Shown: positions 8,871 to 39,494, counted from the stretch's first letter. The stretch: DNA of 64,000 bases from Clostridia bacterium (GCA_017450945.1 JAFSSP010000002.1:8405-72404), one strand, 5' to 3'. Notes: generated by a model not told the origin, from the letters alone. Program-made: numbers and translations.

Positions 8871-8887
8871 AAACGGAGGAAAACGTC

Positions 8888-9757: not shown

Positions 9758-9766
9758 GGAGAAATC

Positions 9767-10888: not shown

Positions 10889-10900
10889 CGGAGGGAGAAC

Positions 10901-11917: not shown

Positions 11918-11932
11918 CGGAGGAATCACATC

Positions 11933-12175: not shown

Positions 12176-12202
12176 AAAAAAGCGGCGCGTGCGCCGCTTT
12201 TT
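12176..12202. terminator. Bidirectional terminator between acpP and the convergent hydrolase
   Basis: AAAAAGCGGCGC-gt-GCGCCGCTTTTT. Confidence 0.8.
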
Positions 12203-13250
12203 ATTGTAGTGCTTTCTTTGCTGTTTCCTGCCTGAAAAACTCCAGTACCCCATCGAGAAACGCGGCGTTTGGCTCGCTGGCTCTCTCGTAGTCGATGCTT
12301 GTAAGAAAACTCTCTTTGACAGGCTCGGGAAGTCTGCCGCCGTATTGCTTTTGCAAGGTGATATACTCCTTTTCCACCGAGCGGACGTAGGCTCCCGCGC
12401 GCTCGGTCAGCCATGCGCCCGAGTGACCCGAGGAAAGCTCGGCGACCCGGACGTTTTGGTTGGTGATCCTATCTTTTCTGCCGGCAAGACTCGCTTCAAA
12501 CGGCACGACAAGATCCGCTTTATCTTGATAGAGCAGTACCGGCGTCTCGACCGCATTGATCGATTTGACGGCCGAGCGGTTCCCTTCCCTTCCAAAGGCA
12601 AAAAAGTCGCGCAGAGCAAGCGCCGGATACCCGAGGATCGAGAGCGCGCCCACGTGCAGTTTTGCGTGGTAGAACATGATCTCGGTCGGCAGATCAAATC
12701 CCGCAATGCAGGCCGCGGCCAGAACCGGCGCTTTTGAGAGATTCCTGCAGGCGGCGTAAGCCCCGGCGCTGTGCGCGTAGATCACGATCGGCAAATCCTT
12801 CTCTTCGGCAACGCAGGCAAGGGCCGCCGCAAGATCCCGCCCGGCCTGCGGAAGCCCGCGGACGCTTTTTCCCTCGCTCTTTCCAAGTGAGGTCGCATCA
12901 TAGGAAAAGACCTGCCAACCGTGATCGACAAAATAAGTGATCTCGGAGAGGTGCCCGTCGGCGGGGCATCCCGCCCCCGGAGCAACCAATATGAGTGCAG
13001 GGCTCTCGCGGTTCTCGTTTCCGTAAAAATAGCCGCAGAGCGAGCACCGGTGGCAGGAAAACCGGCATTCTTCTCTCGGGTAGCGCTCCGCATAGTGCGA
13101 ATACGGATACTGCACAAGAATCGATTTTTTTGCCATGGAGCGAAAGACCAGCCCCGAGATCACAACCGGAAGCACCAACGTTGGGAATAAAAGAAACGCC
13201 CACAAAATCCACAAACCATACCACCGCCTTACCGGTATAGTTTGGATCAA
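12201..13250 (-). CDS. Membrane-anchored alpha/beta hydrolase (paralog 2)
   Basis: N-terminal TM helix, YAHSAGAY elbow, DKADLVVP and SSGHSGAW motifs. TTG start at 13250 is uncertain because no clear RBS is present. Confidence 0.7.
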   Translation of the reverse strand: MIQTIPVRRWYGLWILWAFLLFPTLVLPVVISGLVFRSMAKKSILVQYPYSHYAERYPREECRFSCHRCSLCGYFYGNENRESPALILVAPGAGCPADGHLSEITYFVDHGWQVFSYDATSLGKSEGKSVRGLPQAGRDLAAALACVAEEKDLPIVIYAHSAGAYAACRNLSKAPVLAAACIAGFDLPTEIMFYHAKLHVGALSILGYPALALRDFFAFGREGNRSAVKSINAVETPVLLYQDKADLVVPFEASLAGRKDRITNQNVRVAELSSGHSGAWLTERAGAYVRSVEKEYITLQKQYGGRLPEPVKESFLTSIDYERASEPNAAFLDGVLEFFRQETAKKALQ

Positions 13251-14397: not shown

Positions 14398-15351
14398 TTA
14401 CATCTTTTTTGCAGGCGCATCCACCGAATCAATAAACGCCTTGATCGCGGCGTCGTATTGCTCGGGAGCGTTGATCCGGATGCGCGAATGTCCTCCCTTT
14501 TCAAACCAGACAAGCTGTTTGTGTTTGGAGGGGCAAACGTCGTAGAGCTTTTGCGCTTTGTCGGGATCCGAATATTGATCCTCCCTGCCGTGTAGCATAA
14601 GGATCGGTTTTTGCAGGTTGAGAATCCTTTTTTTCGGGCCGTCGCCCACCGCGTCAGCGTGTGAAAAAACGCGGATGTAAAGCAAAACAAACCAGATAAA
14701 CGGATACTTCGGCCGCTTTTGCTCCTCCATGTGGCGAAGGAAGCTCGAATAGAAGCAGTCGTAGATCCCATCCACTGCAAGACCCACCACATAGTCGGGA
14801 CACTCGTTTGAGGCCGCCGCAAAGAGCGTGGTGGAAGAACCGATGCAAATGCCGTGCAGAAAGATCTTTTTCTGCCCTTTTTCATCGTGTAAAAACTTTG
14901 CCCAAGCGATCACATCGCGGTATTCTTTGTAGCCGATGCAGTTGAAGGTTCCCTCCGACAGGCCGTGACAGCGGTTGTCGATCACAAGGAAGTTACAGGC
15001 GGCCCCTTTGTAGGGAATGGCGTAATAGTAGGAGTAGCGCAGCGCCTCCATACGGCCGGGGACAATGATGGCCGTGCGGTCGTAGCCATAATCGTAGAAT
15101 TCGCCGGCCAGACGAAAACCGTCGCTGACGATCGAAACTTCGGATCTATAGGCCTCTTCGCCTTTGATCCATGCCTCGCCCTCGCGGTACATGCGGGCAA
15201 GCTCTTCATCGTCCGGCTCGCTGATCTCTCTTCCCCATTTGCCCGGTTTGTTGCGGACAAGAACAATGGTATAAACGATCCCGCCAACCAAAAATCCGGG
15301 GAACAGGAACAGCACAAAAATAATCAAAAAAACAATGAGTGCAATCTTCAA
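14398..15351 (-). CDS. Membrane-anchored alpha/beta hydrolase (paralog 3, Cys in nucleophile position)
   Basis: TTG start at 15351 follows GGAGGAA. TM helix present. Elbow reads GICIGSS where paralogs have GISMG. LHGREDQ and GGHSRI motifs. Confidence 0.75.
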   Translation of the reverse strand: MKIALIVFLIIFVLFLFPGFLVGGIVYTIVLVRNKPGKWGREISEPDDEELARMYREGEAWIKGEEAYRSEVSIVSDGFRLAGEFYDYGYDRTAIIVPGRMEALRYSYYYAIPYKGAACNFLVIDNRCHGLSEGTFNCIGYKEYRDVIAWAKFLHDEKGQKKIFLHGICIGSSTTLFAAASNECPDYVVGLAVDGIYDCFYSSFLRHMEEQKRPKYPFIWFVLLYIRVFSHADAVGDGPKKRILNLQKPILMLHGREDQYSDPDKAQKLYDVCPSKHKQLVWFEKGGHSRIRINAPEQYDAAIKAFIDSVDAPAKKM

Positions 15352-17063: not shown

Positions 17064-18410
17064 TTATTTGTTGTCCTTTTTGCCCATCATTACAAGGCTC
17101 TTGGGGAGAATATAGGTTCCCGCAAATGCCACAAACATGGCGATGGCACAGATGAGGGTCATATAAGCCATTGCCTGCGAGCCCTCTTTTTTGCTTGCAT
17201 CCTTCAGGGCGACCAGCACCACGCCGGTTCCAAGCCCGGAAGCCACGCCGGAAAAGAGTCCCTGCACGGCAAAGTACATAGCCGAGTTGGAAATGCCGGT
17301 TCTTGCCTCTTCCTCAGCCGCAAGTTGAGCGGGGACCGAGTAAGCGACGGCAAAGAGCGAGCCGACCGCCATGGAGCAAATGAGTCCGCAGACCACCGAA
17401 AGGATGGTTTTGGGAAGTCCCGCACCAAGGAATTTGCCCACAAAGAACATGGCAAACATTCCGACGCCGAACAGAAGAAGAACATAGCGGAAAGCAAATC
17501 CGAATCCCTTTTTGCGCAGGATCACATTGTAAAGGATCAAGGTAAACGGAACCGGTGCAAAGGAGGTCGCCATGACCACCATCATATTGAGTCCCACAAA
17601 GGAGAAATACTCGTTGATGCCGCCGAGGAAAAGCTGTACGCCAAAGGTCATGAGCGCGTAGACGCACATCCAAAGCACATAGGTCTTGTTGCGGAAGGTG
17701 TGGCCGAGCGACTGAACGAGGTTGACCGATTTGACCTTTTCGACGTTCCCGAGTTCATCCTGGTTCTCTTTGATCATAAAGAGCGGAATGAGCATGGTCA
17801 GCGCCAGAGGCAGAACGATCAGCGCAACATACTTGATGTTGATACCGTTGAGCAAAATGCGAACCAGCACGTAGCCGATGATGAAATAGAAGATATCGCA
17901 AACCGACTTGACATTCGACATGAAGGTTCTGTCGGGCTCGTTGTCCACAATTTCGGTAAAGGTGGCGTAGTAGGTCACCATGGTCAGCGTATAGAAGCTA
18001 TAGAACACGCAAAGAACCACACCAAAGAAAATGGTGTTGCCGAGAGTGGCGCCCGAGGTGTTGGGAATGACAAGCGCAAACAGAAGGTAAGCCGCAACGG
18101 TCAGCACAAGGCCGATGAGGATCGACGGGCGGCGGCGCCCCCATTTGGTGCGCAAATTATCGGTAAAGGAAGCCATGGGAATGTCAATGATTCCGTCAAT
18201 GATCTTTGCAACCAAAACAAAGGTTGCCCAAACGGCGGCAACGACAAGATCCTTGCCAAGAAAAGTCTGGAAGGGGATCGCGTCAACACCGAATCCGCCG
18301 ACAAGCAGGGCGCTGCAAAGATAGGAGCCCATCATCAGGTTGAGCATATTGACGCCCATACCCGAGACGGCATAGACGAGCATTTGACTTCTTTTGGTTA
18401 ACCTTCTCAT
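17064..18410 (-). CDS. GPH (MelB/MFS_2) family cation symporter
   Basis: DGIIDIPMASFTDNLRTKWGRRRP matches the GPH loop signature (D..DP..G...D......GRRRP). Polytopic, 448 aa. Confidence 0.8.
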   Translation of the reverse strand: MRRLTKRSQMLVYAVSGMGVNMLNLMMGSYLCSALLVGGFGVDAIPFQTFLGKDLVVAAVWATFVLVAKIIDGIIDIPMASFTDNLRTKWGRRRPSILIGLVLTVAAYLLFALVIPNTSGATLGNTIFFGVVLCVFYSFYTLTMVTYYATFTEIVDNEPDRTFMSNVKSVCDIFYFIIGYVLVRILLNGINIKYVALIVLPLALTMLIPLFMIKENQDELGNVEKVKSVNLVQSLGHTFRNKTYVLWMCVYALMTFGVQLFLGGINEYFSFVGLNMMVVMATSFAPVPFTLILYNVILRKKGFGFAFRYVLLLFGVGMFAMFFVGKFLGAGLPKTILSVVCGLICSMAVGSLFAVAYSVPAQLAAEEEARTGISNSAMYFAVQGLFSGVASGLGTGVVLVALKDASKKEGSQAMAYMTLICAIAMFVAFAGTYILPKSLVMMGKKDNK

Positions 18411-20314: not shown

Positions 20315-21262
20315 TTACAGGGAAATTGCTTTTTGTGCCGGAACAAGCTTTTGCAGGGATCTGCCCATCTTTGCTTCGTAGCGCCAGATGAGCGCCACGC
20401 GCGCGGAGTCTCCGCAAAGGGCAAGATACAGCGGAGGCGTCCCCTCATAAATGCCACAGAGGGACAGGGCGTTCTCTTTGAGAGAGGATTGCCGATAGAC
20501 TTCTCGCGCCCGCTCTTCCACTTCGCGACAGAAAAGCTCCTTCTCTCCCGCGGGGATCTCTTTTGCAAACAGCCCGACCGGCTCCTGCGAAACGGCGACA
20601 AGCGCGGCGGTATCGGTGGTGCAGATCGAAAACCGGAAAATCCCGGACACAAAGCCGGATTTGGTTCTTTTGAGCTTCCAGTTCTTTGGTTCGTAGGCAA
20701 GACTTTTTGAGACGGCATGCCCCAAAAGCGTCCAGGCAAACAGTTCTTTTTGGCTCTTTTCCGGCGGCATCTTTTTGATGGCGCGCAGAAGCGCTTTTGG
20801 CAAAGGACTGTCAAGCGGGGGCAATTCCTCCGAAAAGGACGCGATATAGACGTCAAGCACCGGACGCGCGCGCCAGCTTTTGCGCGCGGCCTCCTCCAGT
20901 TCGCAAAAATGTCTGCCGAACACGCACTCGTTGGCAAAATGCTCGCAGTTGTTCTTGAGAATGTCGTAACCGCCTTCTCCGATCCTTTCGCGGGCGATCT
21001 TCATCGTTTTTTTCGGAGAAAAGCGACTCCGCCGCTCGGCGCGGTCGAGCGAGGCGACCTCCACCAGCTTGCCGGCGGAAAACTCGTCAATGCTCACACT
21101 TTTTACAAAGATTTTGGAGGCGTCGCGGTTCAGCCCGTCGAGCGGTGCGTCTCCGAACTCGATGACCTCATCGTCCGAGCAGTAAACGCCGTAGTGACAA
21201 ATGGCGCCCACATGGATGCGGATCATATCTCCCGGAGAGCAATCGGCAAGGATCCACTTCAT
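20315..21262 (-). CDS. LRAT/PLAAT-like (permuted NlpC/P60) domain fused to a Sfp-type PPTase-like domain
   Basis: N-terminal half has GDMIRIHVGAICHYGVY (His box) and NNCEHFANECVFG (Cys box). C-terminal half parallels Sfp (PEKSQK.., LLGHAVSKSL, FRFSICTT..LVAVSQEPVGLFAKE), but the GxD Mg site is not conserved. Confidence 0.6.
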   Translation of the reverse strand: MKWILADCSPGDMIRIHVGAICHYGVYCSDDEVIEFGDAPLDGLNRDASKIFVKSVSIDEFSAGKLVEVASLDRAERRSRFSPKKTMKIARERIGEGGYDILKNNCEHFANECVFGRHFCELEEAARKSWRARPVLDVYIASFSEELPPLDSPLPKALLRAIKKMPPEKSQKELFAWTLLGHAVSKSLAYEPKNWKLKRTKSGFVSGIFRFSICTTDTAALVAVSQEPVGLFAKEIPAGEKELFCREVEERAREVYRQSSLKENALSLCGIYEGTPPLYLALCGDSARVALIWRYEAKMGRSLQKLVPAQKAISL

Positions 21263-21510
21263 TTCAGTTTTTTCTCGATGTAATCGACCACGTCGCCAAG
21301 CGTAACAAAATCGTTCATGCCGACGTTGTCAAAACGCATGGAAAAAGTCTCCTCAATGGCAAGGATCATATAGAGCATCCCGATCGAGGAAAGACCGACG
21401 TCGCTGGTGAGATTGGAATTTTCTTCAATCGCGTCCAACGAGTCTCTTTTGGCCGGGTCGGCTGAGAGCAGAATGCTTTTGAGCGTATCGATGATCTGTT
21501 GTCTTTCCAT
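21259..21510 (-). CDS. Acyl carrier protein, non-canonical attachment motif
   Basis: 83 aa. DVGLSSIGMLYMILAIEE occupies the place of DLGxDSLD. Overlaps its neighbours by 4 nt on one side and is 1 nt from the other. Confidence 0.75.
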   Translation of the reverse strand: MERQQIIDTLKSILLSADPAKRDSLDAIEENSNLTSDVGLSSIGMLYMILAIEETFSMRFDNVGMNDFVTLGDVVDYIEKKLK

Positions 21511-21511
21511 A

Positions 21512-23023
21512 TCAGTTCTTTTCCAGTTTGTAGCGGATGATCTTCATGCTGGGCGTGCGGACAAAATCGGTCTCGCGGATCACGATCTTCTGCGCGCGCT
21601 CGTAAGCCGGGAGCGATTGATTGACCTTCACCAGCTCGGCCATGAGAACTTCCATCGGCTTCTCGGCGCCGAGCTTTGCGATCTCGGTCATACGCGGGAC
21701 GACCTCAAGCGAGAGATAGTGCTTGCCGTTCTCGTCGACCGCCTCGAAGATCTGGCTGTCCTGCACAAGTTCGATCTTGTTGAAGAAGGCTTCGACTTCG
21801 GCGGGAGAAATGTTCTCTCCGTTGTCGAGAATGATGAGTTCCTTTTTGCGGCCGGTGATGTAGAGGAAGCCCTCGTCGTCAAAGCGGACAAGGTCGCCGG
21901 TCTTGAACCAACCGTCTTCAAAGGCGGCCGCGTTCTCCTCGGGATCGCCCACATAGCCGTCCATCAGGTTTGCACCCTTGAGCCAGAGCTCGCCGTCCAC
22001 GATCTTTACCTCCTGGTTTGGGTAAAGGAGGCCGACCGAATCCGGCTTTGCGAGGAAATCCGGGTTGCCGGAAACCAGGTTCGCAGTTTCGGTAAGTCCG
22101 TAGCCCGGGCAAAGGTGAATGCCCATTTTCTCATACTCGGTTACAAGGTAGGGGGCAACTGCGGCCGCGCCGCAGATGATGTATTTCATATCCTCGCCGA
22201 GCATGTTCTTGCCGAATCTGCGCGAGAGGGCGAGCGCCATCTCGGCAAGCGCCGGAACCACCACCAGCATGGTGGGGCGGAACATGGCGATATCGCGGAA
22301 GAGATCCTTGTTATCCTTGCAGATAAAGAGCGCGCTTCCGGTGTAAAGCGAGGTCAGAAGGTTGCGGATAAGTCCAAAGACGTGCGAGAGCGGGATGGCG
22401 AGCAGATAGCGCTGGCCGTACACCACCTCCAGACCGTAACAGCCGTTTGCGGTGCCTTGCATGACCGCGCGGTTGGAAAGCAGAGCTCCCTTGCTCTTGC
22501 CAGTCGTGCCGCCGGTGAACATGATGGCGCAGCCGTCCTCGGGTTTTACGTTTTTGTTGATCGGGCTTCCCTTCTCCGCCGCCGCATCGGTAGAAATGCA
22601 GGGAATGCCTTTTGCCTTTGCGATGTTCAGTTTGCCCTCCAGCACGGGAGCATACAGGATCGCCTTGGCCGAAAACTTCATGGTCACGCCGAACAGACTC
22701 ATCTCGTCGAGCTGTGCAGGAATCACGGCGGCGGTCATGCCGCTGGTCGAAACGGCAAGAAAAGCCTTGACAAACTCATAGGAGTTGGGGGCAAAGACCG
22801 AGACCCGGTCGCCGGCCTTGAGTCCGGCACCCAGAAGCGCGGTGCGAAGGATCGCCGCGTCGGCTTCCAATTCCGAGAAGGTGTGGGTTTGTCCATCGTA
22901 AACGATGGCCGGGCTGTCGGCATACTTCATAAGGCAGTTCTCCCACATCTCGCTTGTTGTGCCAAAGGCGCGGATGCTCGAGAAGAGCTCGGGGGACTGG
23001 TAATCTGCAAAGGTCTTTTTCAT
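21512..23023 (-). CDS. Acyl-AMP forming fatty-acid ligase (AMP-binding family)
   Basis: FTGGTTGKSKG, GYGLTET and GWFKTGDLVRFDDEGFLYITGRKKELII motifs. Confidence 0.88.
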   Translation of the reverse strand: MKKTFADYQSPELFSSIRAFGTTSEMWENCLMKYADSPAIVYDGQTHTFSELEADAAILRTALLGAGLKAGDRVSVFAPNSYEFVKAFLAVSTSGMTAAVIPAQLDEMSLFGVTMKFSAKAILYAPVLEGKLNIAKAKGIPCISTDAAAEKGSPINKNVKPEDGCAIMFTGGTTGKSKGALLSNRAVMQGTANGCYGLEVVYGQRYLLAIPLSHVFGLIRNLLTSLYTGSALFICKDNKDLFRDIAMFRPTMLVVVPALAEMALALSRRFGKNMLGEDMKYIICGAAAVAPYLVTEYEKMGIHLCPGYGLTETANLVSGNPDFLAKPDSVGLLYPNQEVKIVDGELWLKGANLMDGYVGDPEENAAAFEDGWFKTGDLVRFDDEGFLYITGRKKELIILDNGENISPAEVEAFFNKIELVQDSQIFEAVDENGKHYLSLEVVPRMTEIAKLGAEKPMEVLMAELVKVNQSLPAYERAQKIVIRETDFVRTPSMKIIRYKLEKN

Positions 23024-23691
23024 GATCTATCTCCTTCTGCAATTTTTTTGAGTTCTGCTTCTTTTTCTCTTAAAAATTCACTGAATTTCTGAATGCTGTC
23101 CATGGACGGCATGGCGCCAAGCCTCTCTCGGACGTCGATCGGCTCGCCGATGCAATAAACCGTGCGGCGATACCATTTTTCGGGCGTTTTTGAATAGATC
23201 GGAACGATCGGAACGCCGCTCCGGATCGCCATCATCACCAAGCCGGATTTGAAAACGTCCACCTCGGCTTCACTGGCGTTCACATGCCCTTCGGGATAGA
23301 TCGAAACGATGTTCCCAGCGGTCAGGTGATCGGTGATCTCGCGGAAGGTGCCGAGATTGAAGTTTTTGCGGTTCACCTCGATGCAGTGAAAGGCGTAGGT
23401 GAAGAGCCAGCGGGTAAACTTTTTTTCAAAAAGCTCGTCGGCGGCAACAAAGTGCATGCGCCGGTACCAAATTGAAAACTGGTCGCGCGCGGGATCGAGA
23501 AGACCTGTGTGGTTAAAAGACAGGACGGCACCGCCGCAGATCTTCTTTTTTGCGGCCGCATTCTCAAATCTCCACTTGGGCCGCAGAATGAGAAGCCAGC
23601 CCGGTGCGGCCAGAAGCCGACCAAAATCGTACAGAGCGTAGCGAAGATCGATGATGCGCGCTTTTTTATTTCTTTGCTTTTTTTGCTTCAT
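23020..23691 (-). CDS. PlsC-type acyltransferase (LPLAT) B
   Basis: ATG at 23691. NHTGLLD (HX4D) and IYPEGH boxes. Overlaps the upstream LPLAT by 26 nt and the downstream ligase by 4 nt. Confidence 0.75.
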   Translation of the reverse strand: MKQKKQRNKKARIIDLRYALYDFGRLLAAPGWLLILRPKWRFENAAAKKKICGGAVLSFNHTGLLDPARDQFSIWYRRMHFVAADELFEKKFTRWLFTYAFHCIEVNRKNFNLGTFREITDHLTAGNIVSIYPEGHVNASEAEVDVFKSGLVMMAIRSGVPIVPIYSKTPEKWYRRTVYCIGEPIDVRERLGAMPSMDSIQKFSEFLREKEAELKKIAEGDRS

Positions 23692-24313
23692 ACTCTTCCA
23701 AAAGATCGCCCAGTTCCATGATCCTTTCCCGGTATTTTTCCGAAATGCGGGCGAGCTGTTCCTTTTCGGACAGCGACGTGTCAAGATAGGCCAAGGTATC
23801 GATCGGTTTCCCGATCAAAACCGAAAGGCGTTTCTTTTTGAAATAAGAGCCGTTGGTATAAACCGGGATTACCGGAACGCCGCTCGAGAGGGCGAGGTAG
23901 GCCACGCTCGGCACAAAGGGGAGCGGCCGCGCCTCACCCGGAAGCGGAAGCCGACTCTCCGGGAAGACCAGAACCACGCCGCCCTTTTCCAGAATCTTTT
24001 TGGATTTTTCCACAAATCCGTAGTCATGGGCCTTGCGATCCACGCGGATGCCGCCCAGCCATTTGAGCAGGATGCGCAGTCCCTTTTTTTCAAAGAGGAC
24101 TTCGGCCATCTGCGCCCGGACGGTTCTGAAGAAAAAGACAAACAGGATCGCGACATAATCGAGGACCGAGGTGTGGTTGCTGATGATGATCGCGGGCCCT
24201 TTGATCCTTTTGCTTTGTATTTGTTTATCCTCGTAAAAGACGCGCGGCCGAAAGCAAATCACTTCGGTAAGCCAGCCCGTGATCTTTACGAAGGTGTTCC
24301 AAAATGTTATCAT
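23666..24313 (-). CDS. PlsC-type acyltransferase (LPLAT) A
   Basis: NHTSVLD (HX4D) and VFPESRL boxes. RBS AAGGAAG. Confidence 0.8.
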   Translation of the reverse strand: MITFWNTFVKITGWLTEVICFRPRVFYEDKQIQSKRIKGPAIIISNHTSVLDYVAILFVFFFRTVRAQMAEVLFEKKGLRILLKWLGGIRVDRKAHDYGFVEKSKKILEKGGVVLVFPESRLPLPGEARPLPFVPSVAYLALSSGVPVIPVYTNGSYFKKKRLSVLIGKPIDTLAYLDTSLSEKEQLARISEKYRERIMELGDLLEEYEAKKAKK

Positions 24314-24343
24314 GTATTCTTCCTTTTCAAGAAGCGTTTCGGG

Positions 24344-26278
24344 TCAGCTTTTCTTTTGCTCCCGGATGTAGTCGGCGATCTGTCCTATGGTGCAAAGATT
24401 CAACCCGCCCGAGACCGGGAAGGGTACCGAAAACTCTTTTTCGATCCGCACGGCCAAAGAAAAGTAATCGAGGCTTGTGCCTTCCCCGTCCGAGAAAAAG
24501 TGGTAATCCTCTCCCATGGTATCAACCGGACGGCCGAGCGCCTCCGAAAAGAGGAGCGCCACGCGCCGGGATAGCTCGTCGCCAAGTTCAGAGGTCGCGC
24601 TCCCAAAGGTCAGTTCGGGATATGCGCCTTCTTGGTAGCGTTTTGCGATGCGCCTGCGGTTGAGCTTGATCTCGTCACCAAAAAGCAGGTCTTTCGAGGT
24701 CAGACAGATCTTCCTGATCTGCCCGGTCAGCTGCAATTCGTCCAGCTTTTTTTGCAGAGCGGCGCGCAGGCCGTCGGCAGTCTCTTGATTGATCCTGCGG
24801 TCGACCGAGGCAATGAGAAGAGGCTCGACCCGACTCTCTTTTTTGATGCCGACAAGGCAAATACTCTGCAAGTGCTCGATCTTTGAGAACGCGGCCTCGA
24901 TGATCGTGGGGTTGAGATTTTCCCCGGCCTCTGAGACGACCAGATCGTCGGACCTGCCGAGGATGAAATATCTCCCCCGCTCCTGCTTTGCAAGATCCTT
25001 TGATAAAAACCAGCCGTTCTTTTCGATGCGGCGGTCTCCTTCCAGAACATACTTTGCCGCGGCCGTGGACTTGATGAGAAGCTGACCGCCTTCGTCGACC
25101 GAATACTGCGCCGAGGGGAGCGGTTTTCCGACCGAGCCGCCGTCAAGGATCCTTTTGTCATCCGAAAGCTCCACCGAGGTGATCCCCACCTCGGTCATGC
25201 CGTAACCGTTGGAAAGATGGTAGCCGATCGCGTTGAAGAATTCCAGAACCTCACCGTGGATCTCACTGCCGCCGGTGATCATATAGCTTATGCTTTCGCC
25301 AAAGAGTTTTTCACGCACCTCTTTATAGGCCAGGCGCGAGAACAGCCGCTCGATCGCCGGGAATTTTTGCAGTTTGCGCGAGAGCTCCATGCCCTTTTGA
25401 AACTTCTTTGCAGTCTCTTCCTTGGCTCCGATGGTCTTCATCGCCTCGGCATAGACCCGGTTCCAGAACAGCGGCACGGCAAACAGGTGGGTGACCTTGT
25501 GGCGGCGGATGGTGGAAAGAATGGTATCGGGCGAAAGATCTTTGAGCTCCACCAGCGTGCGCGAGAAAAAGGTGAACCAGGCGTAAAGTGCCACAAACCC
25601 AAAGATGTGATAGAAAGGCAGAAAGGCGAGCAGCTTAAGCTCTCCTTCATAGTGCCGTTTGATCAGTTTGGACTCGGCAAGGATCTCTCTGGTATCAAGG
25701 ATCTGGCAGGCCAACTCTTTTGCCGAGTAAGCGCAGATCTTGACCGTCTCGGACGTGCCGGAAGACATAAAATAAAACTCCTCGCCGAAAGGGGCGTTTT
25801 GGGGAAGCGCGGCGTCGGAGGGTTTCATCTCGTCCGTCCGGATGGTGCGGATCGAAAATTCTTCTCCACCCGAGATCACGGCAACCGCCTTCATGCGGGC
25901 AAGCGCGTCCTCCAGGATCTCTTTTCCGAGGCGCGCGTTCAAAAGCAGTGGGCAAAAGCCTGCTCTGAGGATCGCCCAATAGCACTCGATCCAGGCAAGG
26001 CCGTTTTCAAGAAAGAGGCCTACCGCACTGCCGGTCGGCGCATCCGAAAGCATCTGTTTCAGCCCCGGGGCAAGACGCTCGATCTCATCCTTGCATTCCC
26101 CGTAGGTCGTTTTCTTGATGCGATAGCCCTCGCTGCTCTCAAATAAAATATTCTCCCGCTCGGAAAACATGAGTTCATAGAGCGCAGAGAAGGATCTATC
26201 TGTTTGTTCCAACCTGCCGAGCTTCCAGGAAACATACTGATCGATGCTTCTGAAGCCGGCCAAATTCTGAATTTTCAT
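24344..26278 (-). CDS. Acyl-AMP ligase fused to a C-terminal carrier (PP-binding-like) domain
   Basis: ATG at 26278. SSGTSETVK, GYGMTE and GWFLSKDLAKQERGRYFILGRSDDLVV motifs. C-terminus DGEGTSLDYFSLAVRIEKEF resembles a carrier Ser motif. Confidence 0.8.
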   Translation of the reverse strand: MKIQNLAGFRSIDQYVSWKLGRLEQTDRSFSALYELMFSERENILFESSEGYRIKKTTYGECKDEIERLAPGLKQMLSDAPTGSAVGLFLENGLAWIECYWAILRAGFCPLLLNARLGKEILEDALARMKAVAVISGGEEFSIRTIRTDEMKPSDAALPQNAPFGEEFYFMSSGTSETVKICAYSAKELACQILDTREILAESKLIKRHYEGELKLLAFLPFYHIFGFVALYAWFTFFSRTLVELKDLSPDTILSTIRRHKVTHLFAVPLFWNRVYAEAMKTIGAKEETAKKFQKGMELSRKLQKFPAIERLFSRLAYKEVREKLFGESISYMITGGSEIHGEVLEFFNAIGYHLSNGYGMTEVGITSVELSDDKRILDGGSVGKPLPSAQYSVDEGGQLLIKSTAAAKYVLEGDRRIEKNGWFLSKDLAKQERGRYFILGRSDDLVVSEAGENLNPTIIEAAFSKIEHLQSICLVGIKKESRVEPLLIASVDRRINQETADGLRAALQKKLDELQLTGQIRKICLTSKDLLFGDEIKLNRRRIAKRYQEGAYPELTFGSATSELGDELSRRVALLFSEALGRPVDTMGEDYHFFSDGEGTSLDYFSLAVRIEKEFSVPFPVSGGLNLCTIGQIADYIREQKKS

Positions 26279-26348: not shown

Positions 26349-26377
26349 ATTATAACATAACTATAGTCTGCTGTCAA
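26349..26377 (-). promoter_or_regulatory. Promoter of the 11-gene lipid operon (TTGACA-17-TATAAT)
   Basis: Minus strand reads TTGACAgcagactatagttatgtTATAAT, about 64 nt upstream of ATG 26278. Confidence 0.7.
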
Positions 26378-26483: not shown

Positions 26484-26512
26484 TTGACATCCTCTGAAAA
26501 CCGTTTTATAAT
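26484..26512 (+). promoter_or_regulatory. Promoter of the abrB-like/ABC operon (TTGACA-17-TATAAT)
   Basis: TTGACAtcctctgaaaaccgtttTATAAT. Confidence 0.7.
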
Positions 26513-26549
26513 TTTGTAAGAAAAGTAAGAAATGTAAGGAGGATAAAGA

Positions 26550-26759
26550 ATGAAAGAACAAACGGAAGACCGCTTTATCGTCAGCGTCAAAGTCGGTCCA
26601 AAAGGGCAAATCACCATTCCCGCCGAGGCGCGGAAAATGTTTGATATCAAAGAGGGGGACACCCTCATGGTAATGGGCGACCGGGCGCGCGGCATTGCGC
26701 TGGTCAAGTCCGACGCGTTTTATTCTTTGATGGGAGGTGCATTCCATGTCGATCATTAA
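26550..26759 (+). CDS. AbrB/MazE/SpoVT-family DNA-binding protein
   Basis: VKVGPKGQITIPAEARKMFDIKEGDTLMV is a swapped-hairpin SpoVT-AbrB motif. RBS AAGGAGG. Confidence 0.8.
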   Translation: MKEQTEDRFIVSVKVGPKGQITIPAEARKMFDIKEGDTLMVMGDRARGIALVKSDAFYSLMGGAFHVDH

Positions 26760-27483
26760 AACCGAAAAACTGCGCAAGGTTTACAAGGACGTCGTGGCGC
26801 TCGAAGGGCTTGATCTTGCCATCGAGGAGGGCGAGCTCTTCTCGCTTCTCGGAGTCAACGGCGCCGGAAAAACCACAACGCTCAAAATGCTGACCGGTCT
26901 TACAAAGCCGACCGGCGGCGACGCGATCCTTTGCGGGCACTCGATTCTGACCGAATCCGATCGTCTCCGCGGCCTTGTCGATATCTCGATGCAGGAGACC
27001 GCCGTTGCGCGCAAGCTGACCGTGGAAGAGAACATCGCCTTTTACGCCGAGCTCTGCGGACAAACAAAAAAAGAGCAGGCCGAAACGGTCGCCTCGCTCT
27101 CCAAAACCTTTGGATTTGAAAAAGTCCTCAACAAACAGGCGCAAAAGCTCTCGGGCGGCTGGCAGAGAAAGCTCTCGATCGCCCTCGCGCTCGTCTCCAA
27201 CCCGAAAATCCTTTTCCTCGACGAGCCGACGCTCGGCCTTGACGTGCTGGCCCGTCGCGAGCTCTGGAACACCATTTCCTCGCTCAAAGGGAAAATGACC
27301 ATCATTCTGACCACGCACTACATGGAAGAGGCCGAGGCCCTCTCGGATCGCATCGGCGTTCTCAAAGACGGCCGTCTCCTGTTTGTCGGCAAAAAGGAAG
27401 AACTGTTTGCGCTGACCGACAAAAATTCGGTGGAAGAAGCCTTTATTGAACTGGTTTCCGGGAAAGGAGGACAGCCCGCATGA
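26746..27483 (+). CDS. ABC transporter ATP-binding protein
   Basis: GVNGAGKTT Walker A, LSGGWQRKL signature, ILFLDEPT Walker B. ATG at 26746 follows GGGAGGTG. Confidence 0.9.
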   Translation: MSIIKTEKLRKVYKDVVALEGLDLAIEEGELFSLLGVNGAGKTTTLKMLTGLTKPTGGDAILCGHSILTESDRLRGLVDISMQETAVARKLTVEENIAFYAELCGQTKKEQAETVASLSKTFGFEKVLNKQAQKLSGGWQRKLSIALALVSNPKILFLDEPTLGLDVLARRELWNTISSLKGKMTIILTTHYMEEAEALSDRIGVLKDGRLLFVGKKEELFALTDKNSVEEAFIELVSGKGGQPA

Positions 27484-28232
27484 AACAATCGCTTGCAAGG
27501 ATCCGCGCCCTGACCGGCCGGAATATAAAAGAACTTCTTCGCGATCCGCTCTCGCTCGTCTTCCTGATCCTCATGCCGCTCGGCATGGAGATCCTGTTTT
27601 ACTTTTTGTTCAGCAAACTGACCTCGCAGTTCCAGATGAAGTATCTCGCGCCCGGTATCGTGGTCTTCTCGCAATCCTTCCTCACGCTCTTCTCTGGCCT
27701 TATGATCGCCGTCGACCGCTCGAGCGCCTTTTTGACCCGGCTTTACGTTTCCAGCGCAAAGCCGCATGAGTTCATTTTTGGCTATGCCTTCTCTCTTTTG
27801 CCGATCTCGCTCGCCCAGTCGATCCTCTTCTTTGTCGTCGGCGGCATCATCGATCCCTCGCTCTTCTCGGCCCGCATGATCGCAGCCGTGGCAGTCTCGC
27901 TGATCCCGGCGGTCTTCTTTATCGGCAGCGGGATCTTATTCGGCTCGCTCTGCACCGAAAAATCGATCGGAGGAGTTGCCTCGATCCTCATCGCCGGACA
28001 GTCGATGCTCAGCGGCATGTGGTATCCCATCGACGGACTCGGAAAAGGAATGCTCACGCTGATGAACGTCCTGCCCTTCCGCCCCGCAACCCTGCTCGTG
28101 CAAAATCTTTTGGGCGGCGTTGCCTCGCCCTTTGACGATTTTGTAAAACCGCTCCTCATCGTCCTTGCCTATACCGTCGCCATCTTCACCGCCGCCATCT
28201 TCGCCTTCGGCAGTAAGATGAAGGCGAAATAA
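27480..28232 (+). CDS. ABC-2 type exporter permease
   Basis: 250-aa polytopic protein. ATGA overlap with the ATPase gene. Confidence 0.8.
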   Translation: MKQSLARIRALTGRNIKELLRDPLSLVFLILMPLGMEILFYFLFSKLTSQFQMKYLAPGIVVFSQSFLTLFSGLMIAVDRSSAFLTRLYVSSAKPHEFIFGYAFSLLPISLAQSILFFVVGGIIDPSLFSARMIAAVAVSLIPAVFFIGSGILFGSLCTEKSIGGVASILIAGQSMLSGMWYPIDGLGKGMLTLMNVLPFRPATLLVQNLLGGVASPFDDFVKPLLIVLAYTVAIFTAAIFAFGSKMKAK

Positions 28233-28423: not shown

Positions 28424-29851
28424 TTACTTACACTTTCCTACCAGCAGTTCGCTGCCTTTGCCTTTTTTGGTGATTTCATTCGGGGCAAGTCCGAATTCCT
28501 TTGCCAAAAGCTCCATGACGAGCGGTTGGCAGAAGCCCCCTTGGCAGCGACCCATGCCGGCTCTGACGCGGCGTTTGACACCGTCAACGTCGGTTGCCTT
28601 GGGGTTTTCGCGCATAGCGCGCAGGATCTCGCCCTCGGTGACCATCTCGCAGCGGCAGATCATGCGGCCGTAAGCGGGCTCTTTTTGGATAAGGGCGTTT
28701 TTCTCCTCAAACGAGAGATTCTTGAAGAAGTAATCGGGCGTGCGGATCGGATTGAAGGTCGGATTTTTCTCAAGCGCAAAGTATTTTGCAACCAGCTCTT
28801 CGACCACAAATTTTGCGATGGCGGGAGCCGAGGTCAGCCCCGGGGATTCGATGCCCGCGCAGTGGAAAAAGCCCTTTGCGGCTTTGCTCTCTTCGAGGAT
28901 AAAATCGTGGCGATCGCAGTAGGCGCGCACGCCGGTAAAGCCGGTGACTTTGGTGCCTAAGGGGAGATTTTCGCACATCTCCTGCGCCTTTTTGAGAATG
29001 GCGGCCTGCCCAACTGCGGTCGTGGCGCGGTCGTCCTCTTCGACCTCCTCGGCGGTGGGGCCGAGCAGGATGTTATTGTCCACCGTTCTGGAAACGAGGA
29101 TTCCCTTGCCCTTTGCGGTCGGGGTAAAGAAAAGCGTGTTGTGGACGAACTCCGGGTCGTGGTCGAGCAGAATATACTCGCCCTTGCGCCCGCCGATGGT
29201 AAAGGAGTTGTCTCCCACAAGGTTTGCGATTTTCTGCGAGCCGAGCCCCGCGCAGTTGATGATCGCCTTTGCTTCCACGACCTGTCCGTCCTCGGCGAAG
29301 ATGCGGTAGGAAGGATACCCCCCCTCGATCTTTGTCACGGCAAAATTGCAGAACAGATCGGCTCCGTTGTCCATGGCGTTGCCGATGGCGGCAATGGTCA
29401 GCTCATAGGGGCAAACGATGCCGCCGGTTTTGGCGTGGAGCGCGCCGAGCGCGTTCTTTGAAATGTTGGGTTCAAGCTCACGAAGGCGCTCGCGGTCGAT
29501 GATCTCAAGCCCTTCGACGCCGTTTTGTTCGCCTCGTTGTTTGAGTATTTCAAGCGTCGCCAGCTCTTCATCCGAAAAAGCGACGACCAGCGAGCCGTTG
29601 TTCTCATATTTGACGCCGAGCTCGCGCGTGACTTCGGGCATCATTTTGGAACCGAGCAGGTTGAATTTTGCCTTGAGCGAACCTGCCGCCGCGTCAAAGC
29701 CGGCGTGGGCGATGCCGCTGTTGGCCTTGCTTTGCCCCATGGCCACATCGTTTTCCTTTTCGAGCAAGCAAACCTTCAGTTGATATTTGGAAAGTTCGCG
29801 TAAAATCATTCCGCCGACGACTCCGCCGCCGATGACCGCAAGATCGTACAT
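28424..29851 (-). CDS. FAD-dependent oxidoreductase with BFD-like [2Fe-2S] domain (anaerobic glycerol-3-phosphate dehydrogenase-like)
   Basis: MYDLAVIGGGVVGG dinucleotide fold. ICRCEMVTEGE..GMGRCQGGFC cysteine motifs. Confidence 0.7.
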   Translation of the reverse strand: MYDLAVIGGGVVGGMILRELSKYQLKVCLLEKENDVAMGQSKANSGIAHAGFDAAAGSLKAKFNLLGSKMMPEVTRELGVKYENNGSLVVAFSDEELATLEILKQRGEQNGVEGLEIIDRERLRELEPNISKNALGALHAKTGGIVCPYELTIAAIGNAMDNGADLFCNFAVTKIEGGYPSYRIFAEDGQVVEAKAIINCAGLGSQKIANLVGDNSFTIGGRKGEYILLDHDPEFVHNTLFFTPTAKGKGILVSRTVDNNILLGPTAEEVEEDDRATTAVGQAAILKKAQEMCENLPLGTKVTGFTGVRAYCDRHDFILEESKAAKGFFHCAGIESPGLTSAPAIAKFVVEELVAKYFALEKNPTFNPIRTPDYFFKNLSFEEKNALIQKEPAYGRMICRCEMVTEGEILRAMRENPKATDVDGVKRRVRAGMGRCQGGFCQPLVMELLAKEFGLAPNEITKKGKGSELLVGKCK

Positions 29852-30034: not shown

Positions 30035-31651
30035 ATGACCATCATTTATGAGATCGGCGGTGTGCTATGCAACAGTGACCTGCAGGAGAATGAAGATTTT
30101 CTTTTGACGATCAAAGAGGAAAACGGCATCTTTGAAGCTTTGATCACGGCAAAGCGCGAAATGACTTTGCGCTATGCCGAGCGTTCAGTCCCCCACAAAT
30201 TCGGAAAAAAGGATCTCATCTTTGCCAACGGCTACCAGTCCTGGACCGAGACAAAAGAGTTTGCCAAGGGCGAAGGGCTCAACGACCTCTCAAAGGTGCC
30301 GAAGTTCCTTGAGAAAAAATTTGCCTTTTTGTCTTACGGCTCGCAGTATTTTGTCAAGCAACCCAAGGGAACGCTCATCGGCTTTGACCTTGCCTACGTC
30401 CGTGGGGAGAACGAGATCTTATTCGGCAACCGCAACTACCGCGCGGCCTATCTTCTCATTCGTCCCGAGCAAAAGGAGAACCGCATTCTCCTGCAAAGCG
30501 ACCTTTGGGGACGCCATCTTGCCGCGGGCGAGAGCTTTCCTGTTTTCCGTTATCTGACGCGGCAAAACGTGGAGGAAGGGCTGAAAGAATACTTCTCGAC
30601 CATGACGCCGCGCACAACCGAAAAGCACTTTGGATACACCTCCTGGTACAACCACTACCAGAACATCAACGAGCCGCTCATGAACGAGGTGCTCAACGGT
30701 CTTGACAACCGCTTTGATCTTTTCCAGATCGACGACGGCTTTGAGCCCTTTGTCGGAGACTGGATGCAGACCGACACAAAAAAATTTCCGAACGGACTTT
30801 CCCCCATTGTGGAAAAGATCCACAAAAAAGGCATGCTCGCCGGCATCTGGCTGGCTCCCTTTGCGGCCGAAAAGGCTTCGGCCCTCTACAAAGAGCATCC
30901 CGAATATCTGGCAAAAGGCCCGGACGGAAAACCAATCCTTGCCGGCGGAAACTGGAGCGGCTTTTCTCCGCTCGATCTCAACTGCCCGCAGGCGGTCGAT
31001 CACATCCGCTGGGTACTCCGCCACTATGTGGAGCTCGGATTTGATTTCTTCAAGCTCGATTTTCTCTACGCCGCAAACCTTTTGCCGCTGAACGGCAAAA
31101 CGAGGGCCGAGACCGCCGAGTTTGCCTACTCGCTGCTTCGCGAAGAGCTGGGCGACCGCCTCATCCTGGGTTGCGGAGCCACGCTCTCAAACGGTTTTGA
31201 ACGCTTTGACTATATGCGCATCGGCCCGGACGTCTCGCTCAAATTCGACGACGTCGCCTACATGCGCAAATTCCACCCCGAGCGCATTTCGACCAAGGTC
31301 ACGCTCTGCAACACGATCTTCCGCAGTCCGATGAACCGACACGCCTTTGGCAACGATCCCGACGTGTTCCTCCTCCGCGAGGAAGGGCTCTCGCTCTCGG
31401 CCGATCAGCGCTACGCGCTCTCGGTCATCAACGCCCTGTTCGGCTCGCTCCTTATGACCTCCGACAATCCGGGGATCTACAACGAAGAGCAAAACAAGAT
31501 CCTTTCCAAAATCCTTGAGATCTCCAAGACCGGCGAGGTGGATGGCTACGAGCGCAAAGGCAATCAGATCCATGTTCGCTACACCCTCGGCGGGGCTCCG
31601 CGCTCGCTCGTTTATCACATCAAAAAAGGAGTGATTTTACGTGAAAGATAA
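30035..31651 (+). CDS. GH36-like alpha-galactosidase family protein
   Basis: FQIDDGFEPFVGDW and FFKLDFLY resemble the melibiase catalytic regions. Confidence 0.6.
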   Translation: MTIIYEIGGVLCNSDLQENEDFLLTIKEENGIFEALITAKREMTLRYAERSVPHKFGKKDLIFANGYQSWTETKEFAKGEGLNDLSKVPKFLEKKFAFLSYGSQYFVKQPKGTLIGFDLAYVRGENEILFGNRNYRAAYLLIRPEQKENRILLQSDLWGRHLAAGESFPVFRYLTRQNVEEGLKEYFSTMTPRTTEKHFGYTSWYNHYQNINEPLMNEVLNGLDNRFDLFQIDDGFEPFVGDWMQTDTKKFPNGLSPIVEKIHKKGMLAGIWLAPFAAEKASALYKEHPEYLAKGPDGKPILAGGNWSGFSPLDLNCPQAVDHIRWVLRHYVELGFDFFKLDFLYAANLLPLNGKTRAETAEFAYSLLREELGDRLILGCGATLSNGFERFDYMRIGPDVSLKFDDVAYMRKFHPERISTKVTLCNTIFRSPMNRHAFGNDPDVFLLREEGLSLSADQRYALSVINALFGSLLMTSDNPGIYNEEQNKILSKILEISKTGEVDGYERKGNQIHVRYTLGGAPRSLVYHIKKGVILRER

Positions 31652-33077
31652 AAGCAGTGTGATCTTCGGCAATCCGATCCCGAAAAAAATCGTAAAGCAG
31701 GCCGAAAAAGCAAAAGCCGGCTATCTCAAAAAGTACGGCGACGACTCAAACGCAAACTACCGTCTCGCCACTTCTCCGATCGACGCGCTCGACTTTCTCG
31801 GCGTGAAAAACCTCGTCTTTGGAGAGACGGCCGCCGACCTTGGCGCAAAGCCGCTGGTGGTCGGCAACATCCGCATGGGCTTTGGCCATTACCGCATTTC
31901 GATCGCCATGGCCTCCTGCGCCCGCGCGCTCGGGTACGACCCTTACTGGCTCGACCTTGCCGGCTTTGACGCCACCGGCTCCAAAATGATCCGCGAGCAA
32001 AACGATCTCTATTCGCTCGCTTCGCGCATTTCGCAAAAATCAAAACTGTTCAACCATTTCATCTGGGAACCGCTCAACTCGGAGGGCTTTCGCAAGATCA
32101 CCTACAACGCAAAGGATCAAAAGAATTCCGAACTGCTTGTCCCGATCTTCTCTTCGCTTCCAAAGGAGATTCCCTATATCGCCACGCACGTCTGGCCGGC
32201 GCAGGGCGCCATCCACGCGGGGCTTACCCATGTGGTCAATGCCATCCCGGACAACTGGCCGATGGGACTCCACCTCGCAGAGGGCGCGATCCACACCGTG
32301 CAGACGCCCTTTGCCTACTACGGCTACAAAACCTTGCGCGGGTTTGACAAAAAGCCGCTGAAAGGCATTCCGGAATCCGAGCTCAAAATGGTCGGCAGAT
32401 ACGTCGATCACGAGCTTCTCGTCAACCTGAGAGAGGACAACGCCGCTCGCCGAGAGCGCGCTCTCTCGGGCGCTCCGATGCGATTCCTCATGACCGTGGG
32501 CGGCGCCGGAGCCGGGTACAGACAGTTCCTCTCGATGGTTCGCCACCTGCTCCCCTACATCAAAGAGGAAAAGGCGACCCTGCTGATCAACTTCGGCGAC
32601 CACAAGGACGCTTTTGAACGCTTGAAAGCCGACCTTGCCCTCCCGGATATCAAGACCTATTTCAACGATTACGAGGGGCTCAAGGCTCTGGTTTCGTCTC
32701 TTCGCGAAAATGATCTTACCGGTATCACCGCGATCTACAACGAGGATATCTTCCAGGCCGTCTATTCGACCAACCTGCTCATGCCCGAGTGCGATATCCT
32801 TGTGACCAAGCCCTCCGAGCTCGCCTACTACCCGATCCCGAAGCTCTTTATGCGGCATATCGGCGGCCATGAGGTCTACGGCGCGGTCTGTTCGGCAGAG
32901 GCAGGCGACGGCTCGCCCGAGTGCGATACCGAGGAAAAGGCGGACGAGGCGATCGACCGCTTCCTCTCGGACAAAGAGCTCTTCTGCCACATCTGCGACC
33001 GCATCGACGAGCTTCAAAAAAGCGGCGCCTATCACGGTGCTTACGAATGCGTGAGGCTCGCGGCGGGAGAAGAATAA
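31641..33077 (+). CDS. GT-B fold glycosyltransferase-like protein (MGDG-synthase/UgtP-like)
   Basis: GNIRMGFGHYRISIAMAS (like the GxGH..A N-terminal motif) and DILVTKPSELAYYPIPKLF (like ITKPGG..E). GTG start overlaps the GH36-like gene by 11 nt. Confidence 0.5.
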   Translation: MKDKSSVIFGNPIPKKIVKQAEKAKAGYLKKYGDDSNANYRLATSPIDALDFLGVKNLVFGETAADLGAKPLVVGNIRMGFGHYRISIAMASCARALGYDPYWLDLAGFDATGSKMIREQNDLYSLASRISQKSKLFNHFIWEPLNSEGFRKITYNAKDQKNSELLVPIFSSLPKEIPYIATHVWPAQGAIHAGLTHVVNAIPDNWPMGLHLAEGAIHTVQTPFAYYGYKTLRGFDKKPLKGIPESELKMVGRYVDHELLVNLREDNAARRERALSGAPMRFLMTVGGAGAGYRQFLSMVRHLLPYIKEEKATLLINFGDHKDAFERLKADLALPDIKTYFNDYEGLKALVSSLRENDLTGITAIYNEDIFQAVYSTNLLMPECDILVTKPSELAYYPIPKLFMRHIGGHEVYGAVCSAEAGDGSPECDTEEKADEAIDRFLSDKELFCHICDRIDELQKSGAYHGAYECVRLAAGEE

Positions 33078-39375: not shown

Positions 39376-39376
39376 T

Positions 39377-39451: not shown

Positions 39452-39453
39452 CG

Positions 39454-39490: not shown

Positions 39491-39494
39491 CAAC

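Follow-up and report, generated by a model that had tools for sequence, protein, structure and literature searches.

A conserved, uncharacterised operon of 11 lipid genes in gut and rumen Clostridia

A stretch of 64,000 nucleotides of Clostridia bacterium DNA (GCA_017450945.1 JAFSSP010000002.1:8405-72404; referred to here, at its full length, as the window) carries a conserved, uncharacterised operon of 11 lipid genes, which recurs in gut and rumen species of Clostridia. The genes are co-directional, all on the minus strand, and run from 26278 to 14398, and neighbouring genes overlap by at most 26 nt, with 4-nt overlaps among them, or lie no more than 30 nt apart. An earlier account made from the nucleotide sequence alone (the sequence-only reading) had named the five leading genes, which encode two ligases, two acyltransferases and an acyl carrier protein (ACP), and all five were recovered in place and on the minus strand. 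What it had overlooked were six further minus-strand genes downstream of the ACP gene, encoding a fusion of an LRAT domain with a phosphopantetheinyl transferase (PPTase), two hydrolases (ABH1 and ABH2), a DegV/FakB protein, an MFS_2 transporter and a second FakA, and it is these six that drive the functional reading of the locus as a lipid operon. The operon and its parts, from the promoter onwards, are as follows.

26349..26377, minus strand: operon promoter, TTGACA, a 17 nt spacer and TATAAT with a TG extension, a 12/12 match to the sigma-70 consensus
24344..26278, minus strand: LigPCP (ligase 1), a 644-aa adenylation-carrier (A-PCP) didomain protein; PF00501 127 bits and C-terminal PF00550 27.1 bits
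24347-24586, minus strand: carrier domain of LigPCP, about residues 565-644 (PF00550)
24473-24475, minus strand: codon of LigPCP Ser602, the predicted carrier attachment serine
23666..24313, minus strand: LPLAT_A, a 215-aa PlsC-type acyltransferase (NHTSVLD, FPES); PF01553 63.6 bits
23020..23691, minus strand: LPLAT_B, its 223-aa paralogue (NHTGLLD, YPEG); PF01553 63.4 bits
21512..23023, minus strand: Lig2, a 503-aa stand-alone acyl-AMP-forming ligase; PF00501 206 bits
21259..21510, minus strand: ACP2, an 83-aa stand-alone carrier; PF00550 24.7 bits
21385-21387, minus strand: codon of ACP2 Ser42, the predicted carrier attachment serine
20315..21262, minus strand: LRAT/PLAAT-like Cys-His domain (residues 1-120) joined to a degenerate Sfp-type PPTase domain (about residues 133-300); PF04970 69.5 bits
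19358..20305, minus strand: ABH1, an alpha/beta hydrolase with an N-terminal transmembrane helix and a Ser nucleophile (GISMG); PF00561 and PF12146
18417..19343, minus strand: DegV/FakB-type fatty-acid-binding protein, the second copy in the window; PF02645 198 bits, TIGR00762 205 bits (cut-off 99.7)
17064..18410, minus strand: MFS_2/GPH-type transporter, its start possibly at 18383; PF13347 99 bits
15366..17021, minus strand: FakA paralogue 2, a DAK2-type fatty acid kinase subunit with DGDTG retained; TIGR03599 473 bits (cut-off 396)
14398..15351, minus strand: ABH2, an alpha/beta hydrolase with an N-terminal transmembrane helix and Cys at the nucleophile elbow (HGICIG); PF12146 and PF00561

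The Pfam cut-offs that apply to these matches are 29.9 bits for PF00501, 20.8 bits for PF00550, 23 bits for PF01553 and 24.3 bits for PF04970.

One strong promoter stands before all of the genes, about 70 nt upstream of the ATG at 26278, which has the Shine-Dalgarno sequence GAGGTG directly 5' of it. This ATG is taken as the start of LigPCP because the promoter (26377..26349) sits within a longer open reading frame of 695 aa beginning at TTG, and the longer frame was for that reason ruled out as the ligase 1 gene. Neither a riboswitch nor a leader was found by Rfam scan within or upstream of the operon, and a terminator scan at the operon gave no signal over background. In a composition scan, GC content was even throughout the region (0.52-0.57), and since it is flat, recent horizontal transfer of the operon was rejected.

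The operon is widespread. There are 1523 relatives of LigPCP at E <= 1e-5, the best 120 listed all being of about 640 aa, and at least 459 species genomes encode one, a count that is a lower bound from a scan of one genome per species. The best 80 loci belong to Ruminococcus, Oscillospiraceae, Lachnospiraceae, Christensenellales, Mageeibacillus and gut or rumen Clostridia without further classification, and they include those in the complete genomes of Ruminococcus sp. JL13D9 and JE7B6. The gene order LigPCP-LPLAT_A-LPLAT_B-Lig2-ACP-LRAT-ABH1-DegV-(MFS)-FakA-ABH2 is kept in 60/60 complete loci. Presence was counted in these 60 loci, which are long enough to judge and were chosen via LigPCP, so that the 60/60 for LigPCP holds by construction; LPLAT_A, LPLAT_B, DegV, FakA and ABH2 are likewise present in 60/60, ABH1 in 59/60, the ACP in 57/60, LRAT in 55/60, Lig2 in 52/60 and the MFS transporter in 37/60. 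The operon is read as an old, vertically inherited unit.

Both ligases bear the marks of the ANL superfamily (PF00501), that is the family score, the P-loop, the A5 Glu, the A7 Asp, the A8 Arg and the A10 Lys. In LigPCP, whose sequence contains FFSDGEGTSLDYF, the residues S173-G-T-S, K180, E363, D428, R442, K538 and Ser602 are invariant in an alignment of 22 homologues that are 47-71% identical, and the carrier motif of these homologues reads FFxDxGG(T/S)SLDYF, where Ser602 never varies (n=22). GGxS(L/I) is the standard core motif of carriers of the non-ribosomal peptide synthetase (NRPS) type. In the AlphaFold2 (AF2) model of LigPCP (pLDDT 83, pTM 0.75), Ser602 stands at the N-terminal end of helix 602-616, which is part of a bundle of helices at the C-terminus, and the PDB structures that match the full-length fold best are two A-PCP didomains, that of McyG (4r0m) and that of carboxylic acid reductase (CAR; 5msw). 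When a LigPCP profile was compared with the PDB, the ACP 2ehs was matched at E = 4e-11 and NRPS A-PCP (A-T) regions were matched over residues 328-642. With PF00550 above its cut-off, the AF2 bundle and the McyG and CAR matches all in agreement, the earlier suggestion of a carrier fold at the C-terminus of ligase 1 stands, and the contrary possibility, that this region is not a carrier fold, failed when it was checked.

Motif A4 of LigPCP, FLPFYHIFG, is of the acyl-CoA-synthetase type, and the amino-acid-binding FDxS is not present. The alpha-amino-binding Asp in motif A4 marks A domains of the amino-acid type. A condensation domain was found in no operon protein by Pfam and NCBIfam scans, and LigPCP was rejected as a non-ribosomal peptide synthetase, the name it carries at NCBI, on the type of its A4 motif and on the lack of a condensation domain in the operon. 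The nearest neighbours of LigPCP in sequence and fold are MenE and 4-chlorobenzoate ligase (4-CBL), at a similarity of 16-19% that reflects generic ANL features only.

In Lig2 the motifs are canonical (GGTTGKSKG, GYGLTE, TGD, GRKKE) and conserved in orthologues, and its A4-type motif, IPLSHVFG, fits together with that of LigPCP the pattern PxxH(I/V)FG of acyl/aryl-CoA synthetases. Its best NCBIfam match is the long-chain-fatty-acid ligase PRK06187 (220 bits, under the family cut-off), and its PDB relatives include FadD13, FadD5 and FadD10. The Lig2 gene overlaps the end of LPLAT_B by 4 nt and is followed after 1 nt by that of ACP2, an arrangement of ligase and 83-aa ACP that had been described before and is borne out by the reading-frame coordinates and by the PF00501 and PF00550 matches. 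Ser42 of ACP2 is kept in 66/66 orthologues within the motif DxGxxS(V/I), and the residue preceding it is S, N or T in 64/66 and D in none. Both carrier regions pass the PP-binding profile PF00550 (27.1 and 24.7 bits). The sequence-only reading had called their motifs non-canonical, and while GTSLDY in LigPCP and GLSSIG in ACP2 are as it described them, the label was overstated, where both keep the serine in the canonical position, deviate only relative to the AcpP of fatty-acid synthesis, and show traits of their own families.

The two acyltransferases are PlsC-type paralogues of 30% identity end to end, and the earlier description of two overlapping genes, each with an HX4D and an FPEG-like box and sharing 26 nt, proved accurate. 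In LPLAT_A orthologues (n=80) NHTSvxD and FPES are at least 90% conserved, as are NHxxxxD and FPEG in LPLAT_B orthologues (n=79). A check on pseudogene status, made with about 80 orthologues of each, found that neither frame is a pseudogene, because HX4D and FPE(S/G) are conserved at this level. The sole PDB relative of LPLAT_A is the T. maritima PlsC 5kym. Assignment to PlsC proper (TIGR00530, cut-off 102.95 bits) was rejected at 45.3 bits for LPLAT_A and 54.3 bits for LPLAT_B, and assignment to Aas (NF005959, NF006386) at 25-48 bits against cut-offs of 886 and 1221, the LPLATs also being separate polypeptides; their best NCBIfam matches include the LPLAT segment of Aas-type MFS-LPLAT-ligase fusions (PRK08633). 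A third PF01553 acyltransferase of 389 aa is encoded elsewhere in the window (5641-6810, plus strand); its PlsC identity was also rejected, its score being below the PlsC cut-off. The gene overlaps by 4 nt the end of a gene for a GltS-like membrane protein (4268-5644, plus strand), and the two may form another transporter-acyltransferase pair.

How the two ligases relate to the two LPLATs can be judged from natural variants. In 5 loci the ACP is present without ligase 2, and 3 loci have neither ligase 2 nor ACP; in all of these both LPLATs are kept, LPLAT_A being missing from L077, a shorter locus outside the 60 (loci with L numbers are related loci of other genomes). Judged by gene content, ligase 2 and its ACP are dispensable, while both LPLATs are always kept among the 60 complete loci. 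Because the LPLATs persist where ligase 2 or the ACP is lost, a strict pairing of one ligase with each transferase is unlikely, and LigPCP is apparently able to serve both LPLATs, a one-to-one pairing not being obligatory. The proposal of two parallel acyl-activation modules is thereby supported in part: both ligases, both carriers and both LPLATs look functional and are conserved, whereas the pairing of a module with each LPLAT is weakened by the 8 variant loci. That two distinct acyl chains are placed at two positions of one acceptor, as had also been suggested, is possible.

The gene after ACP2 encodes an LRAT-PPTase fusion. Its first 120 residues have the papain-like fold, the catalytic His and the NCEHF Cys of the LRAT/PLAAT family (PF04970), where His23 and Cys106 with the flanking NCEHF are invariant (n=27 sequences), and they match PLAAT3 in sequence at E = 2e-4 and PLAAT2/3 in structure at TM-scores of 0.75-0.80. 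The AF2 model of the fusion (pLDDT 86) matches in fold both Sfp (4mrt) and PLAAT (4fa0/7zom). Most orthologues are about 345 aa long and have an Sfp-type PPTase as their C-terminal half, PF01648 and PF04970 both being matched, with the intact motifs FSLSHT..VAVAVSN..VG(V/I)DIE and WTKKES.FK. In the window copy this half keeps the Sfp fold, its top PDB match being the Sfp-CoA-PCP complex 4mrt; unlike most orthologues, it gave no Pfam match to PF01648 and does not qualify as an Sfp-type PPTase. Its first motif reads VGLFAK and the metal-binding Asp and Glu are replaced, and the PPTase domain of the window copy is probably inactive. The gene in this position varies among species, being a full LRAT-PPTase (about 345 aa), LRAT only (about 140 aa), a truncated or degenerate PPTase with LRAT (about 283 aa), PPTase only (225 aa) or absent; examples of the variants are L010:13487-14164, L008:14967-15401 and L007:12977-13825. 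In most species the operon has an Sfp-type PPTase gene of its own, which argues for carriers that are really loaded and against plain CoA ligases; as an argument from gene content, the operon-borne PPTase is strong, if indirect, evidence that the carriers are used.

Both hydrolases of the operon are well kept. The elbow of ABH1, GxSMG, is conserved (n=62 orthologues), and a search of PDB sequences gave generic haloperoxidase/esterase matches only, with no clue to its substrate. In ABH2 the elbow HGICIG, with Cys in place of Ser, is at least 90% conserved (n=61 orthologues), which hints at thioester or acyl-transfer chemistry over simple esterase activity. A third alpha/beta hydrolase is encoded downstream of the operon (12201-13250, minus strand); relatives of it lie directly after ABH2 on the same strand in 3/3 loci inspected (L008, L043, L055), a relative is found in 21 related loci (for example L008:20111-21055), and the conserved unit may be one gene longer by this hydrolase. 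For the MFS_2 transporter, comparison with PDB sequences gave chance matches only and no substrate clue.

FakA and DegV of the operon have the architecture of a FakA/FakB pair, DAK2-FakA_M-FakA_C with a DegV partner, and fall short of the stricter equivalogs (FakA_VfrB 347 vs 975; FakB1 107 vs 350). The window holds two FakA/DegV pairs less than 10 kb apart, where the other belongs to a plus-strand set at 7233-12160 that comprises FakA (7233-8870), DegV (8777-9757), a 373-aa protein with a weak GNAT match only (9767-10888), PlsX (10901-11917) and AcpP (11933-12160). Operon FakA is 36% identical to FakA 7233-8870 and operon DegV 26% identical to DegV 8777-9757, by which measure the operon pair are second, divergent copies. 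The AcpP, which reads DDLGADSLD, is separate from the operon and canonical in its motif, as the sequence-only reading had it. In related loci, each of about 22 kb with short flanks, adjacency to PlsX/AcpP was not seen and only the third hydrolase recurs downstream.

Taken together, the operon is best read as a rearranged system for fatty-acid salvage and lipid re-acylation, resembling Aas/LplT and the Lands cycle, an interpretation drawn from gene content and motifs. In its specific form, in which free, probably long-chain scavenged fatty acids undergo carrier-dependent activation and are transferred to glycerolipid hydroxyls, the proposal seems to us as apt to be right as wrong. In this scheme, free fatty acids would come from the medium or be freed by the two membrane-anchored hydrolases and the LRAT/PLAAT-like domain. 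LigPCP would then adenylate the acid and thioesterify it, in cis, to the Ser602-phosphopantetheine of its own carrier, while Lig2 would adenylate the acid and load ACP2 in trans; in parallel, DegV2 and FakA2 would make acyl-phosphate. The carriers would be primed by the LRAT-fused PPTase in most species, and in the window genome by another PPTase, which must act there because the fused domain is degenerate. With carriers as the presumed acyl donors, LPLAT_A and LPLAT_B would use their HX4D motifs to move acyl groups to a lysolipid, glycerol-phosphate or similar acceptor, which the MFS_2 transporter, where present, may deliver or flip in the manner of LplT. The hydrolases and the LRAT domain would form the deacylation or editing side, and the net flux would presumably run from free acid towards lipid. 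A fatty-acyl substrate class is favoured because of the A4 motif type, the FadD-type relatives and the neighbouring FakA, DegV, PLAAT-like protein, LPLATs and lipase-like hydrolases. A bolder and improbable version is a glycerolipid remodelling machine free of CoA and AcpP, where chains are stripped by the LRAT/PLAAT-type Cys enzyme and the Cys/Ser hydrolases and re-installed from private carriers by two position-specific LPLATs, and where the LRAT-PPTase docks on the carrier for two purposes, priming it and swapping acyl groups between the phosphopantetheine thiol and lipid esters. Such ATP-independent loading would explain the loci with an ACP but without ligase 2.

Several findings weigh against the salvage and re-acylation reading. 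The substrate, product and acceptor rest on inference, both LPLATs score far under the PlsC and Aas cut-offs, LigPCP is divergent in its N-terminal half and has an atypical P-loop (SGTSxxxK), the PPTase domain is degenerate in the window genome, and the MFS transporter is missing from 23/60 loci. In addition, dedicated carriers and a PPTase are more typical of secondary metabolism, and with an apparently housekeeping FakA-DegV-x-PlsX-AcpP set in the window, the second system might serve a specialised lipid and not bulk membrane lipid. The most serious competitor, a possible though rather unlikely one, is a specialised-lipid pathway akin to those of natural products, in which a discrete diacylated ester lipid or a signalling lipid is assembled on a small-molecule acceptor by the ligase/carrier pairs together with the two LPLATs and then exported by the MFS transporter. 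Private carriers together with an Sfp-type PPTase in the same operon are characteristic of secondary metabolism, the housekeeping FakA/DegV/PlsX/AcpP genes lie apart, 2-7 kb past the operon end, the NCBI name of the didomain is that of a non-ribosomal peptide synthetase, and the logic of a free-standing A domain, ACP and transferase is documented in gut Clostridia for OaaA/OaaACP/OaaC (PMC13310621), to which the pathway would be analogous but ester-forming. Such a pathway fits poorly, however, with the invariable coupling to FakA/DegV and lipase-like hydrolases, with the apparently vertical descent of the operon across several orders and at least 459 species genomes, with the result of the Pfam/NCBIfam scans, which found no condensation, ketosynthase (KS), tailoring or regulator genes in the operon, and with the loss of the would-be exporter in those 23 loci.

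It has also to be considered that LigPCP, and possibly Lig2, activates an acid that is not a fatty acid (aromatic, hydroxy or dicarboxylic), which the LPLATs would esterify onto a lipid or glycan in a manner like that of DltA/DltC or of aryl polyenes. The neighbours of LigPCP, MenE and 4-CBL and not long-chain fatty acyl-CoA synthetases, its divergent N-terminal half and P-loop, and the layout of a 503-aa ligase with a carrier of about 80 aa, which is DltA/DltC-like, all lend something to this idea, but the similarity to MenE and 4-CBL is just that of generic ANL features, neither DltA nor amino-acid A-domain families are among the top NCBIfam matches, the best matches of Lig2 are fatty-acid ligases, and FakA, DegV, LRAT/PLAAT and the LPLATs next door are all fatty-acyl enzymes, so that we regard it as doubtful. 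Least probable by a wide measure is the view that both ligases simply make acyl-CoA, with a carrier domain and an ACP that are vestigial or serve another process, and that the LPLATs use acyl-CoA or AcpP thioesters. The PP-binding scores are indeed modest (27.1 and 24.7 bits), the window PPTase is degenerate, and a few species have lost ligase 2 and the ACP; set against this, the carrier serines are invariant (n=22 and n=66 homologues), the A-PCP fusion is conserved across more than 1500 proteins, and in most species the gene next to that of the ACP carries an intact PPTase. To our knowledge, no PlsC-type enzyme of Firmicutes uses CoA thioesters, which also counts against this view.

Outside the operon, at 26484-28232 (plus strand), a small AbrB/MazE-like gene and the genes of an ABC-2 transporter, its ATPase (26737-27483) and its permease (27480-28232), stand under a divergent promoter with a perfect 12/12 match (26484-26512); this neighbourhood is not kept in most related loci. 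Farther on, at a distance of 2 kb upstream from the operon, lies a minus-strand gene (28424-29851) for a FAD-dependent glycerol-3-phosphate dehydrogenase that is GlpA-like and has a BFD [2Fe-2S] domain, and a protein with DUF6937 and DUF6938 (357 and 281 bits) is encoded at 31641-33077 (plus strand), adjoining a melibiase-like gene at 30035-31651. Rfam scans of the window placed a class A RNase P RNA at 1450-1809 (minus strand, 236 bits), one tRNA at 6900-6985 (plus strand), and two tRNAs followed by a Gut-1 sRNA (RF01706, 64.8 bits, 39491-39565) at 39299-39565 (plus strand).

The groups that host the operon, Ruminococcus, Oscillospiraceae, Lachnospiraceae and Christensenellales, are dominant in the communities of gut and rumen, which are steeped in fatty acids from the diet and the host, and how such Clostridia take up and place fatty acids is essentially unstudied beyond the FakAB paradigm of bacilli and cocci. 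If the salvage and re-acylation reading is true, the second Fak pair with ligases, private carriers and two LPLATs would be a new route for exogenous fatty-acid use in Gram-positive anaerobes, and lysolipid repair of the Aas/LplT kind would extend past Gram-negative bacteria. The operon would also offer a natural LRAT-PPTase fusion and a Cys-nucleophile hydrolase as objects of study, and it bears on resistance to drugs targeted at type II fatty-acid synthesis (FASII) and on how microbes produce lipids that are active in the host. Ruminococcus sp. JL13D9 and JE7B6 may allow direct tests, if the strains are obtainable.

A full-text literature search found no publication on the operon or on an LRAT-PPTase fusion, and a meta-analysis of gene clusters in inflammatory bowel disease (PMC10871352) contains no term relevant to it. 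Of known systems, Aas/LplT unites the same activities: a fatty-acid ligase of the adenylate-forming kind charges a carrier protein, a PF01553 LPLAT draws on the acyl-carrier, and an MFS transporter sits alongside. The parts are arranged differently: E. coli Aas (PRK08043) and fusions of the PRK08633 type join the LPLAT to the ligase and use the housekeeping AcpP in trans, whereas the operon joins the carrier to the ligase and leaves the LPLATs as separate proteins. The operon further adds a second LPLAT, a second ligase with ACP, its own PPTase, LRAT, hydrolases and FakA/FakB, its MFS transporter is of the MFS_2/GPH type and optional, and its family scores lie far under the cut-offs. LplT/Aas has been described as a Gram-negative system (PMC11416262), whereas the hosts of the operon are Clostridia.

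Another example is found in clostridial fatty-acid-amide clusters, which consist of OaaA (an A domain), OaaACP and OaaC (PMC13310621). By description, these share with the operon a gut clostridial host, a free-standing adenylating enzyme that places exogenous fatty acids on a private small ACP, and a transferase that unloads it, and Lig2 with ACP2 has the same layout. The Oaa transferase, however, is an NRPS condensation domain that forms amides, while the operon has two HX4D LPLATs, which presumably form esters, and no condensation domain; membership in the Oaa type, as defined in that work (PMC13310621), was rejected for want of a free-standing condensation domain in the operon.

The FakA/FakB-PlsX-PlsY-PlsC pathway of Firmicutes is alike in FakA and DegV/FakB and in LPLATs of the size and type of Firmicute PlsC, an acyl-ACP user. 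It differs in that the Fak pair of the operon is second and divergent, the LPLATs fall below the PlsC cut-off, and ATP-dependent ligases with private carriers are present in the operon and not in the Fak pathway. McyG (4r0m) and CAR (5msw) have, like LigPCP, a four-helix carrier behind an ANL adenylation domain, at 13-14% identity, but LigPCP stands alone, with no KS or reductase domain and with LPLAT genes next to it. The eukaryotic Lands cycle (PLA/PLAAT, ACSL and LPLAT) offers a Cys-His enzyme of the PLAAT/LRAT fold, lipase-like hydrolases, fatty-acid ligases and LPLATs as counterparts, as opposed to which the acyl groups of the operon would ride on protein-bound phosphopantetheine and not on CoA, and its LRAT domain is fused to a PPTase.

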